A stretch of DNA of 61,930 bases, from the IMG/VR virus record IMGVR_UViG_3300013099_000022; one strand, given 5' to 3'. The stretch comes from a virus. A model generated the notes under the pieces. It was not told the origin of the DNA and made no database searches. It saw only the letters and a program-made list of their open reading frames with translations. Position 1 is the first letter of the stretch. The number at the start of each line of letters is the position of its first letter. Of the stretch, positions 16,576 through 17,190 are shown piece by piece. The position numbers and the translations under genes are program-made.

Positions 16576-16602
16576 AAAGATTTACCGTTTAAAATAATAT
16601 AG

Positions 16603-16692
16603 CATACCCAGTCTAATGTTTAAGTCTATTTCATAAAAACCAATATATGGTAATATATGAAATAGACTTAAACATTAGACTAGGTATACTAG
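16603..16692. repeat. Long inverted repeat: 32-nt arms (31 of 32 complementary) flanking an approximately 22-nt loop
   Basis: ATACCCAGTCTAATGTTTAAGTCTATTTCATA ... TATGAAATAGACTTAAACATTAGACTAGGTAT, read directly; one mismatch. Confidence 0.85.
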
Positions 16693-16776
16693 TTTCTGTA
16701 AAAGTTTATTTGTCATTTGTATTTATTATTAAGTTATCAAGGACATGTATTTGCTTGATATATAATAATAAATTAT

Positions 16777-16944
16777 TTATTCTTTAATTTTCTTATTCAA
16801 CCTTTCTAAATCCTTTTCATTTATTCTTACGCCAACATATTTACTAACGTTTACTAATTGTTTTAAATCAGCAATATGTATATAATTAATAATTTTATTC
16901 TTTATTTTAGTAACAACTTGTTTTAAAGTTCTGTTATCAGACAT
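16777..16944 (-). CDS. Possible small ORF (55 aa, not in the ORF track) in the large non-coding region
   Basis: MSDNRTLKQVVTKIKNKIINYIHIADLKQLVNVSKYVGVRINEKDLERLNKKIKE; no homology signal. Confidence 0.2.
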   Translation of the reverse strand: MSDNRTLKQVVTKIKNKIINYIHIADLKQLVNVSKYVGVRINEKDLERLNKKIKE

Positions 16945-17190
16945 ATCACAACCCTTTCCAGTTTGAACAATGGTTTATTAATATCATAAATACTCCTTTC
17001 CAACACAGGATAAAGAATACAACATTTTATTAAAATTAGTAATTTTTATTAAAATTATAATTCTTATCCTTATATTGAGTTAAAATTGTTTTTAATAGTG
17101 AGTTAATTGAGTGAGTTAATTAGTACAAATATCTGTGTTGCATTATGTATATTAATATATATAGTTCTTGGTTTTTAAATTAAATAAACT

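Follow-up and report, generated by a model that had tools for sequence, protein, structure and literature searches.

A long hairpin conserved on the sense strand upstream of p190 in a lineage of jumbo phages

We found that the region upstream of p190 in an uncultivated jumbo phage of approximately 250 kb carries a long stem-loop, whose structure is conserved among relatives, specific to the sense (minus) strand, and held at a fixed position ahead of the p190 start codon. The analysis covered a 62-kb stretch of this genome, hereafter the window. The region is best explained as a single conserved expression unit; in transcription order on the minus strand, a TA-rich block is followed by a leader of approximately 190 nt (AACTCAC repeats and a small stem-loop), a strong SD with a short uORF, the small gene p55, and the long stem-loop (92 nt); the U-run motif comes next, ahead of the SD and start codon of p190. 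The long hairpin is most likely a cis-acting mRNA element in an intercistronic or leader position, and we tentatively propose that it is a double-stranded RNA (dsRNA) processing site of the RNase III type.

Gene content and layout of the region

The preliminary description regarded positions 16576–17190 as a gene-free hub of 615 bp and as the only long non-coding gap. When only ORFs of at least 60 aa are counted, no gap in the window is longer than this one; however, it is not a single non-coding stretch, as it contains a conserved 55-aa gene, p55, on the minus strand (16777–16944), which was also called by independent public gene callers. The non-coding segments proper are 16540–16776 (237 nt) and 16945–17190 (246 nt). 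The flanking genes are co-directional on either side of the region.

The identity of p55 in the close clade was 43–67%, and a profile search gathered 143 proteins of 44–106 aa, mostly 48–62 aa. A p55-like ORF (40–70 aa) was located immediately 5' of the hairpin in 64 of 89 loci. The AF2 model showed three helices with a pLDDT of 86, and relatives of p55 carry an Arg-rich helix (KKLRRRIE). No significant match was obtained in Pfam, PDB, or Foldseek searches; weak, isolated matches were to Rho_N (E = 0.008, in one of 32 members) and PKZ Z-alpha (E = 0.15). We consider p55 to be a real gene, whose product is predicted from the model to be a small basic three-helix protein.

The p190 gene with its SD occupies 15967–16552 on the minus strand (SD AAGAGGA at 16546–16552; stop at 15967). 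Met1 was invariant in the homolog alignment, and we place the predicted start at the ATG at 16539 and not at the TTG at 16575, i.e., 36 nt downstream of the longest-ORF start. The p190 family includes more than 455 homologs, all without annotation; the AF2 model had a pLDDT of 87 and no neighbour in PDB or BFVD. The gene heads a conserved p190-p312-AAA-VWA block, in which AAA is a MoxR-AAA, and synteny downstream of p190 was kept in 67–74 of 74 loci. MVP/SPFH-like genes are found near the element in this strain; the MVP-like gene is an insertion specific to this strain, and no relative that keeps the hairpin has it. A megablast search with 6 kb found no DNA match in the phage database, and a tRNA scan found no tRNA in the window. 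T4-like Dda, UvsX, and gyrase genes are present and favour a bacterial host, and related contigs sit in both bacterial and archaeal MAG bins.

At the upstream end of the unit, the TA-rich block GAACTATATATATTAATATACATAA (17143–17167, minus strand) begins approximately 25 nt after the stop codon of the upstream gene p84. It was invariant in eight close relatives, whose proteins are only 50–78% identical, and unique in the window at up to three mismatches. Its core, CTATATATAT[TA]AAT, gave 61 sense matches, which fell in 59 of 98 loci and always upstream of p190; there was one antisense match and none downstream. The block is an extended form of a recurring motif (AGAAC plus an AT-rich sequence) that is located 35–58 nt upstream of other start codons. 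We consider it promoter-like in sequence and probably a promoter; it could also serve as a DNA-unwinding site.

The leader contains direct repeats (17073–17121, minus strand). The two tandem copies of AGTGAGTTAATT noted earlier were located at 17110–17121 and 17097–17108 (minus strand, AATTAACTCACT), and a degenerate third copy, TTTTAACTCAAT, was found at approximately 17073–17087. The repeat period is 12–13 nt, and close relatives keep three to four copies of AACTC(A/T)C; the repeats may form a regulator binding site on DNA or RNA. Next is a smaller stem-loop (17007–17071, minus strand), in which AAGGATAAGAAT (17060–17071) pairs with ATTCTTTATCCT (17007–17018). Read by eye, the alignment suggested that this stem is kept in relatives, as GATAA/TTATC in some and GAAA/TTTTC in others. 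The two copies of TTTTATTAAAATTA (17025–17038 and 17044–17057), likewise reported before, sit in its AT-rich loop; 0.09 copies would be expected in the whole window.

The strong SD GGAAAGGAG (16993–17001) and a predicted 13-codon uORF (16946–16987, MILINHCSNWKGL*) come next (16946–17001, minus strand), with the uORF stop 1 nt before the p55 ATG. The sequence TCCTGTGTYGGAAAGGAG was invariant in the close clade, although part of the uORF conservation may simply reflect the p55 SD (GGAAAGG). A long-range pairing of CAACACAG with CUGUGUUG in the p55 leader was rejected; the alignment showed that its 5' side varies without compensation.

In relatives, the TA block stays by p84 and the hairpin by p190, and cargo of 0 to 3.7 kb varies between them. 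At four loci (L001, L051, L053, and L057), the TA block is directly followed by the hairpin, T-run, SD, and gene, with no intervening ORF; in the last three, the block ends approximately 0–15 nt before the hairpin. Cargo in relatives includes two tRNA-like elements, an ARPP-1 protein, and a VWA-like protein. At L008, the Rfam tRNA model matched the cargo twice and ARAGORN found no tRNA gene. Hairpin length showed no significant correlation with cargo size (Spearman 0.13, p = 0.3).

Structure and conservation of the hairpin

An inverted repeat with 32-nt arms and one mismatch had been described at 16603–16692. The repeat was recovered with different details; the stem-loop spans 16600–16691 on the minus strand, with 36-nt arms (5' arm 16656–16691, 3' arm 16600–16635) and a 20-nt apex (16636–16655). 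On the minus strand, the stem consists of 36 uninterrupted pairs, 34 Watson–Crick and two G·U, of which approximately nine are G-C; on the plus strand, the two G·U pairs become A·C mismatches. The apex contains the nested palindrome CCAATATATGG, as previously observed, and a 4-bp mini-stem, ACCA/TGGT. The MFE was −58.7 kcal/mol (z = −11.4) for the minus strand versus −49.3 kcal/mol for the plus strand. No other hairpin in the 62 kb comes close to this length, in agreement with the earlier comparison with terminator stems; the runners-up were 16–28 nt with 71–100% complementarity. The ordinary terminators of the window have 10–16-bp stems that abut a T-run, with T5CCGTC tails, i.e., the helix is 2–4 times longer. 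Neither the window nor the 708 kb of loci contained a second copy, and the covariance model matched solely upstream of p190 (99 sources, 708 kb). The idea of a MITE or repeat family was rejected given that no second copy exists there.

Two short motifs flank the hairpin on the minus strand. The 5' flanking motif GACAAATAAACTTTT (16700–16714) is located 8 nt upstream and is kept as CAAATAAATCTTTT in the close clade. The U-run motif TTTTTGTCGTTTTT (16565–16578) is separated from the 3' side of the hairpin by 21 nt and from the p190 ATG region by 26 nt; it does not vary within the close clade and occurs only once in the window. RNAfold predicted that the two motifs pair with each other, both in the window and in L002. 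A general role of the U-run as a promoter or terminator motif was rejected, as the window has no other copy and the motif is not enriched on the sense strand across 708 kb.

The long hairpin was kept in about half to nine-tenths of 99 distinct relatives, depending on the criterion, and the stem sequences were largely unrelated between relatives. A first lenient helix tracer discriminated poorly (25% of shuffles reached 25 pairs), and a strict ungapped criterion was used. Under this criterion, a stem of at least 20 positions was found in 49 of the 99 relatives (median 29, maximum 48); among dinucleotide shuffles the count was 11 of 495, and among control windows from the same loci it was 71 of 2209. 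The median score of the real loci was 27, versus 25 for the best shuffle. Lenient tracing with internal loops yielded at least 25 pairs in 93 of 99 relatives, the median being 40 pairs within 92 nt. The longest uninterrupted helix had a median of 16 pairs (at least 11 in 63 of 68 loci and at least 20 in 26 of 68), and the stem was often unbroken for 24–38 bp. Extreme length is not indispensable, because a few relatives (L037, L051, L057, and L001) have only a 13–21-bp hairpin.

Covariation was assessed in the close clade using a sequence-only MAFFT alignment. Paired cells accounted for 94.5%, versus 33–41% when partners were slid by 1–3 columns, and double (compensatory) changes were present in 20 of 37 pairs, a level reached by none of 500 shuffles. 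The sole hairpin SNP between two strains with 99.8% identity changed a G·U to an A-U pair. A covariance model with default filters gave 33 matches, from the close clade and a few others. It recovered few relatives because the clades share no sequence; for the same reason, the family-wide evidence is that of per-sequence folding with shuffle and locus controls. The position of the hairpin was nearly constant, with a median of 54–59 nt from its end to the p190 ATG (interquartile range 53–69) and a median of 39 nt from the end of the upstream ORF to its start.

When G·T and A·C were scored symmetrically, the stems contained 1250 Watson–Crick pairs, 179 G·T, 19 A·C, and 24 transversion mismatches, whereas base composition predicts a G·T:A·C ratio of approximately 1.2 (an estimate from skew values). 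Therefore, selection appears to act on the sense strand, most likely at the RNA level, and not on a palindrome in duplex DNA. G·U accounted for 12% of the pairs, and in 94 of 99 loci the sense fold exceeded the antisense fold in stability, on average by 15 kcal/mol. We infer from these pairing statistics that the hairpin acts as RNA in a sense transcript. Strand asymmetry alone leaves an ssDNA hairpin possible, because the sense strand would have the lagging-strand template sequence if genes are co-oriented with replication.

The preliminary description had raised a replication origin or iteron region and a pac/cos-proximal site. In such a DNA-level element, the TA block would unwind, the AACTCAC repeats would act as iterons, and the hairpin would support single-strand initiation or priming; alternatively, the region would be a packaging site. 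We consider this highly unlikely. It is true that the TA block, being single-copy and extraordinarily conserved, resembles a unique cis site more than a promoter class, that the direct repeats adjoin it, and that GC drops to 0.19–0.24 in the region. The hairpin-forming strand is also the G-rich one, which would make it the template of the lagging strand provided that the skew stems from replication, and origins of T4- and T7-type phages are promoter-associated. However, the GC skew proposed as a check for an origin was negative across the region and the whole 62 kb, with no change of sign or inflection, and the cumulative curve was monotonic from 16.5 to 17.2 kb, which is a weak test where skew follows transcription. 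The co-directional genes on both sides and the lack of an adjacent initiator or terminase gene also argue against an origin or packaging site. The three repeats are 7–12 nt in length and lie between the promoter-like block and the SD; although they accompany a TA-rich block, their length and phase are unlike those of classical iterons (approximately 17–22 bp, in helical phase). In addition, the 12% G·T positions and the 9:1 G·T:A·C bias are typical of RNA helices, and when cargo is inserted, the hairpin tracks the downstream gene start and not the TA block. For the single-copy TA-rich block itself, a DNA-level or origin role is conceivable.

Possible roles in processing, termination and stability

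The other options of the preliminary description, i.e., a strong processing or termination site separating two transcription units or a non-coding RNA, fit the hairpin. Its G·U pairs are strand-specific, its stem carries compensatory changes, and it keeps a constant place between two cistrons on the coding strand. Our tentative preference is the RNase III-type processing site. The hairpin would decouple p190 from the upstream sequence, whatever that is; the reader, presumably a dsRNA endonuclease, would recognise a dsRNA helix of 3.5–4.5 turns by its shape and length and not by its sequence. A cut in the stem would separate the p55 or cargo RNA from the p190 mRNA, would set the 5' end, stability, and translation of p190, and would leave the upstream RNA ending in half of the stem on its 3' side. 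Known RNase III substrates have about two helical turns or more, and the 36 uninterrupted pairs in the window form a continuous helix that exceeds the approximately 20 bp (two turns) expected of such substrates.

RNase III hairpins are known from the E. coli rpsO-pnp and rnc leaders, the lambda N-leader and sib, T7 R0.3-R18.5, and the SP82/SPO1 early mRNA sites. As in these systems, the element would form sense-strand dsRNA of at least two turns; it is located between a small cistron and a downstream gene, tens of nucleotides before the SD, and its structure is conserved far beyond its sequence. The rpsO-hairpin-pnp layout is very close to p55-hairpin-p190. T7 sites have a characteristic internal loop, whereas the stem here is often uninterrupted. 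The number of sites also differs; the element occurs once per at least 62 kb, whereas T7 has about ten sites, an observation that runs against the RNase III reading. Most archaea are without RNase III.

The conserved U-run that follows the hairpin is a further difference, as RNase III sites are without such a run and it plays no part in RNase III recognition. Its conservation hints at termination or another reader. A T-run of at least five (consensus SS-T5-6-G-T-T/C) was present in 93 of 99 loci; it started a median of 35 nt before the ATG and a median of 17 nt after the hairpin (interquartile range 10–23). The T-run abutted or overlapped the core hairpin in 16 of 85 loci, and the predicted outer helix reached it in 22 more. 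When predicted outer and separate helices are included, 48 of 85 loci have a helix end no more than 3 nt from the T-run, a count without a control; more than 3 unpaired nt preceded the T-run in 37 of 85.

These values bear on a transcriptional attenuator or terminator, in which the hairpin and U-run would stop or pause an RNA polymerase (the host enzyme or a phage multisubunit one) at the end of a short unit comprising the TA block and p55. In the attenuator version, expression of p190-p312-AAA-VWA would need read-through or antitermination, as in lambda pR'-tR'-Q, and p55 could be the factor. We regard this as doubtful, although several features agree with it. The U-run resembles the tails of the window terminators, the hairpin starts a short distance past the upstream stop codon, as expected of a terminator, and the TA block and hairpin enclose the variable cargo as the two limits of a unit would. 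Helix ends close to the T-run in the 48 loci mentioned above point the same way, and L037 carries only a GC-rich 13-bp terminator-like stem at the hairpin position. As with lambda tR' and Q, a stable hairpin followed by a T/U run separates a short promoter-proximal unit from the long operon that comes next.

Nevertheless, the U-tract of a canonical intrinsic terminator must abut the stem (0–3 nt), and in the window the T5 starts 21 nt after it. Because the T-run starts a median of 17 nt after the core stem among relatives, the geometry of the core hairpin does not fit an intrinsic terminator. Nor is the stem short and GC-rich (approximately 5–15 bp); stems of 30–59 pairs far exceed the need of any known terminator. 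In addition, in loci without cargo, a terminator would directly follow the only recognisable promoter of the downstream genes, and an antiterminator was not identified here.

We also considered a passive stability element, in which the uncut hairpin would block 3'-to-5' exonucleases and thereby protect the p55 or cargo mRNA, like the malE-malF REP; after processing at the U-rich site, it could protect as a 5' structure, and it would set the amounts of upstream and downstream products. This element would share the RNA-level evidence and the intercistronic position with the RNase III-type site, and the hairpin would be at or near the transcript 5' end in loci without cargo. Moreover, RNase E prefers single-stranded RN|WUU sites, which the SS|UUUUU motif resembles. 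Such barriers and 5' stabilisers work at 8–20 bp, however, and selection for approximately 40 pairs would be unexplained; we judge a purely passive role distinctly improbable. REP/BIME (malEFG), puf hairpins, Correia, and ERIC are likewise intergenic palindromes that are co-transcribed, as is probably the case here, and able to shape operon expression, and Correia elements are RNase III targets. However, REP/BIME, Correia, and ERIC elements are multi-copy with conserved sequence, whereas the present element is single-copy, divergent in sequence, and fixed in position.

Relation to non-coding RNAs and significance for the lineage

The search for related RNAs in Rfam gave no match at gathering thresholds in the whole window. 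In E-value mode, only generic miRNA-precursor models were matched, with 30–40 bits versus thresholds of 75–100. The literature revealed no comparable element in jumbo phages. With approximately 100 independent sequences, strong covariation, and strand-specific G·U pairs, comparative analysis well supports the element as a structured RNA that is absent from Rfam.

The hairpin and U-run could instead constitute a stand-alone non-coding RNA, i.e., a panhandle of the Y RNA or vault RNA type or a transcript from which short dsRNA-derived RNAs are made. Such an RNA would have its own promoter or be cut from a 3' UTR, and its partners would be p55, p190, or the MoxR-AAA/VWA pair. Y and vault RNAs are similarly long-stem RNAs of approximately 90–130 nt followed by a T-run. 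The parallel extends to the neighbourhood, as the element is located near VWA, MoxR-AAA, and, in this strain, MVP/SPFH-like genes, and relatives contain tRNA-like cargo. The promoter-hairpin-T-run order at L051, L053, and L057 matches the layout of an sRNA gene, relatives carry RNA-related cargo in the slot, and the sole Rfam resemblance, far under threshold, is to long-hairpin precursors.

We nonetheless consider a stand-alone RNA very unlikely. Pfam gave no TROVE domain for the neighbouring proteins in the window or for the L008 cargo proteins, and neither did PDB sequence search, i.e., a TROVE/Ro60 relative was not detected. A Ro60/TROVE identity of the 518-aa cargo protein was not supported. 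The element also differs from Y and vault RNAs in having no Rfam match or conserved bulged-helix motif. Across relatives, no loop or stem sequence was conserved that could act as a trans seed, and the tight spacing to the p190 SD and ATG would be expected of a cis-acting element.

Finally, the hairpin and U-run, with or without p55, might be a previously undescribed regulatory RNA module, specific to a large jumbo-phage lineage that is widespread in the environment. In an N/nut-like version, the Arg/Lys-rich helix of p55 would bind the nascent hairpin and license read-through into the p190-p312-MoxR-AAA-VWA operon; in a panhandle-RNP version, a stand-alone RNA would assemble with these proteins. 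Taken together, the two versions are improbable. If either were true, the slot would be a conserved landing pad for RNA-related cargo (tRNA-like RNAs, ARPP-1, and VWA proteins).

The analysis corrects the annotation of this genome, in that the 55-aa gene was added and the p190 start was moved 36 nt downstream. The slot between the TA block and the hairpin is a conserved site of accessory-gene exchange. In jumbo phages with their own multisubunit RNA polymerases, little is known about transcript architecture and RNA processing beyond a few cultured Pseudomonas and Bacillus phages; the element marks a fixed boundary in a lineage known from metagenomes only.

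A stem-loop conserved in length and position but not in sequence

The long inverted repeat reported in the gap is real, with arms at 16600–16635 and 16656–16691 on either side of a 20-nt apex, and the nested palindrome CCAATATATGG sits in this apex. The preliminary description counted a single mismatch, but the plus strand has two, both C·A. Both read as G·U on the minus (coding) strand, where the stem contains 36 uninterrupted pairs; the minimum free energy was −58.7 kcal/mol (z = −11.4) on this strand versus −49.3 on the plus strand. As had been proposed, no other hairpin in the window comes close.

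Using a profile of p190, the protein encoded 3′ of the hairpin, we retrieved 137 loci from viral and metagenome collections, and each of their 99 distinct upstream regions was folded individually. An ungapped stem of at least 20 positions was present in 49 of the 99 real regions, 11 of 495 dinucleotide shuffles and 71 of 2209 other windows from the same loci. Among the passing stems, the median length was 29 and the longest stem spanned 48; the real median score (27) was above the best shuffle score (25). A tracer tolerating internal loops detected at least 25 pairs in 93 of the 99 regions but was lenient, also doing so in 25% of shuffles; its medians were 40 pairs, a span of 92 nt and a distance of 54 nt to the p190 ATG. 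Between clades, the stem sequences were almost completely different.

To test for covariation, we aligned the ten closest sequences with MAFFT, fitting the alignment to no structure. In this close-clade alignment, 94.5% of cells were paired versus 33–41% when partners were slid by 1–3 columns, and both sides had changed at 20 of 37 pairs, a level reached by 0 of 500 shuffles. Searched against 708 kb, a covariance model of the close clade matched only the position upstream of p190, and the sense strand always outscored the antisense strand; the same model found no second copy in the window. These results show that the hairpin is a sense-strand stem-loop of 3.5–4.5 helical turns, whose length and position, and not its sequence, are conserved. 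On its 5′ side lies a small cistron (or a promoter), and on its 3′ side p190.

To favor neither strand, we gave G·T and A·C mismatches the same score. The stems comprised 1250 Watson–Crick pairs, 179 G·T, 19 A·C and 24 transversion mismatches; the G·T to A·C ratio expected from base composition is ~1.2, as we estimated from the skews. The sense fold was more stable than the antisense fold at 94 of 99 loci, with a mean difference of 15 kcal/mol, and G·U accounted for 12% of pairs, a share typical of structured RNAs. The sole SNP in the hairpin between two 99.8%-identical strains (16609) converts G·U to A-U. Judged from these sequence comparisons, the hairpin acts on one strand, most likely as RNA. 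A protein-bound duplex-DNA palindrome would lack such strand asymmetry; should the genes and replication run in the same direction, this strand would also be the lagging-strand template, which leaves some room for a single-stranded-DNA hairpin.

Genes, leader and variable slot around the hairpin

The gap at 16576–17190 is the longest in the window at a 60-aa ORF threshold; however, it is not gene-free as first described, holding a 55-aa ORF, p55 (16777–16944, minus strand), which is called by public pipelines. This ORF is conserved in all close relatives, its family comprises 143 small proteins, and structure prediction yielded a confident three-helix model. In 64 of 89 loci, with all clades represented, the hairpin is directly preceded by a p55-like ORF of 40–70 aa. 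The start of p190 is the ATG at 16539, preceded by the Shine–Dalgarno (SD) sequence AAGAGGA, and not the TTG at 16575. Owing to p55 and this moved start, the non-coding DNA shrinks to 16945–17190 (246 nt) and 16540–16776 (237 nt).

A strong SD, invariant in the close clade (TCCTGTGTYGGAAAGGAG / GGAAAGGAG), and a 13-codon upstream ORF (MILINHCSNWKGL-stop) occupy 16946–17001 on the minus strand, the ORF ending 1 nt ahead of the p55 ATG. Close relatives have comparable short ORFs, e.g., MILMYCSWKERI-stop; these suggest putative translational coupling or a leader peptide. Both direct repeats noted previously were found where they had been placed. The GAGTTAATT repeats correspond to AACTCAC repeats in the leader, 3′ of the TA block described below (3–4 copies with a 12–13-nt period), and the TTTTATTAAAATTA repeats lie in the loop of a second minus-strand stem-loop (17007–17071).

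Downstream of the hairpin, the minus strand encodes p190–p312–(p54)–MoxR-like AAA ATPase (407 aa)–DUF2201/VWA metallopeptidase-like protein (471 aa) at 9408–12056 and 15014–16539, and the p190–p312–AAA–DUF2201/VWA block is kept in 67–74 of 74 relatives. The Cys/His residues C58, C61, C69, H72, C112 and H114 of p190 are invariant. We found no recognizable fold or family for p55 or p190; the AF2 model of p190 is confident, yet it has no structural neighbor in PDB or BFVD. An 849-aa protein (12174–14723, minus strand) contains a Major Vault Protein (MVP) shoulder domain (Pfam E = 5e-19), unusual in phage, and a vault-repeat match. The gene is limited to this strain (L138 and L139). In the closest relatives, L002 and L003, it is missing and the small p54 gene sits directly against the AAA gene; none of the 74 other loci for which sufficient downstream sequence is available has it either.

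A TA-rich promoter-like stretch, the TA block (GAACTATATATATTAATATACATAA; 17143–17167, minus strand), comes after the stop of p84, the gene upstream, and does not vary among eight relatives with protein identities of 50–78%. Across 98 loci, its core CTATATATAT[TA]AAT had 61 sense matches in 59 loci, every one upstream of p190, and one antisense match; none lay downstream of p190. The block resembles an AGAAC+AT-rich motif located 35–58 nt before several other genes, and its extended form is unique in the window. On the minus strand, (T)nAGAAC followed by an AT-rich TATAAA-like stretch occurs at ~45739, 39629, 37715, 27732 and 18804, 35–58 nt before start codons; the motif is probably the main promoter class of the phage.

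The one feature in keeping with a unique DNA site, for example a T4/T7-type promoter-associated origin, is the TA block, which is present once and is extremely conserved; an origin or iteron region and a packaging site had been among the initial suggestions. However, GC skew stays negative over the whole 62 kb and does not inflect at the site, genes on both sides are co-directional, the repeats have neither the length nor the phasing of iterons, and no initiator or terminase gene was found among those adjoining the gap. We therefore regard a DNA-level origin or priming signal as very improbable.

Across loci, the TA block stays by the end of p84 and the hairpin stays by p190, whereas the distance between them falls into discrete classes: ~0–60 nt (5 loci, no ORF), 280–680 nt (p55 only), ~1 kb and 3.1–3.7 kb. 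The intervening DNA of locus L008 includes a p55-like gene and encodes a VWA-like 518-aa protein with a DxSxS motif and a 320-aa ARPP-1-domain protein (L008 3100–5632). Two tRNA-like elements next to these two proteins (L008 2596–2654 and 2845–2915, plus strand) scored 29.4 and 47.5 bits with the Rfam tRNA model; ARAGORN called neither. In relatives with this 3.5-kb cargo, the tRNA-like elements and the 518-aa and ARPP-1 proteins could represent an RNA-repair or RNP-type accessory module. Locus L001 has neither p55 nor p190, yet a TA block is still there, followed in order by a 21-bp hairpin, a T-run, an SD and the next gene. The slot architecture and L001 indicate that the hairpin, lying 3′ of the only recognizable promoter-like element, shares a unit with the downstream genes. 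It is thus more than a terminator for the genes before the TA block.

Phage lineage and host

The window has a GC content of 27%, and 81 of its 84 crude ORFs are on the minus strand. It encodes RNA polymerase beta (1363 aa) and beta′ subunits, gyrase B, topoisomerase IV A, a Dda-like helicase, a UvsX-like recombinase, ribonucleotide reductase and an SNF2-type helicase; by predicted gene content, it is a jumbo-phage region for transcription and DNA metabolism. A 461-aa protein (42572–43957, minus strand), in which a DAHP-synthase-family domain (E = 1e-44) is fused to a C-terminal SAM-methyltransferase domain, is the product of an unusual auxiliary metabolic gene adjoining ribonucleotide reductase. 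Inside the RNA polymerase subunit cluster, a gene for a 115-aa staphylococcal-nuclease-like protein (23275–23622, minus strand; E = 3.5e-7) lies directly 5′ of the beta gene with a 1-base overlap.

The window sequence recurs at 99.8% identity on a 246.9-kb contig of NCBI assembly GCA_029935735.1 and is likewise carried by ENA and JGI contigs; IMG/VR relatives are contigs of 200–270 kb. A 6-kb megablast search of a phage database found no cultured phage with DNA-level similarity. Lineage contigs (P0184, P0239; L141–L145) were found in archaeal MAG bins of ANME-2, Promethearchaeota, Thorarchaeota and Thermoplasmatales, and others in bacterial bins of Desulfobacteraceae, Hyphomicrobiales and 'uncultured bacterium'. 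The lineage is thus binned into very different MAGs of both domains. Some archaeal MAGs probably contain mis-binned phage DNA, and the predicted T4-like replication genes favor a bacterial host.

Possible function of the hairpin

The hairpin is followed by a U-run motif, TTTTTGTCGTTTTT (16565–16578, minus strand), which is invariant in the close clade and specific to the p190-upstream locus. A looser form, SS-T5-6-G-T-T/C, was present in 93 of 99 loci at a median of 17 nt past the hairpin and 35 nt before the ATG. In some relatives the motif reads TTTTTTGTTCT(A)n, near the reverse complement of the (T)nAGAAC motif. The window's own terminators have 10–16-bp stems abutting the T-run. Two such ordinary terminators (27745–27791 and 45790–45840, minus strand) share the tail TTTTTCCGTC, and a third (~55401–55438, minus strand) has the tail T8GTTG; this may reflect a tail specific to the terminators of this phage. 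The long stem is separated from its T-run, a layout at odds with intrinsic termination. As the stem is also well beyond the size that termination needs, an attenuator or terminator with read-through control appears doubtful.

We consider it likely that the hairpin acts in cis, as an RNA element in the leader of p190; a stand-alone panhandle non-coding RNA is improbable. Tentatively, by analogy with rpsO–hairpin–pnp, the lambda N leader and the T7 R sites, its closest parallels in this respect, the element might be an RNase III-type processing site, in which the hairpin would be read as double-stranded RNA. Its size class fits RNase III substrates and far exceeds what a terminator or an exonuclease barrier needs; for the latter reason, a passive stability hairpin is unlikely. 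In addition, shape is kept without sequence, as a shape-reading dsRNA-binding domain would yield. However, the conserved U-run plays no part in substrate recognition by RNase III, the window has a single site, a few relatives have short stems, and the MAG bins span ANME-2/Asgard archaea to Desulfobacteraceae; these points argue against RNase III-type processing.

No Rfam family matched the hairpin, and we found nothing comparable in the literature on jumbo phages. We would class it as a new, well-supported structured-RNA motif of a familiar general kind, i.e., a phage mRNA processing or termination hairpin. It is not a new category, and the function we infer for it is probably conventional; its covariation support is unusually clean, and it comes from a lineage that is widespread in sediments.
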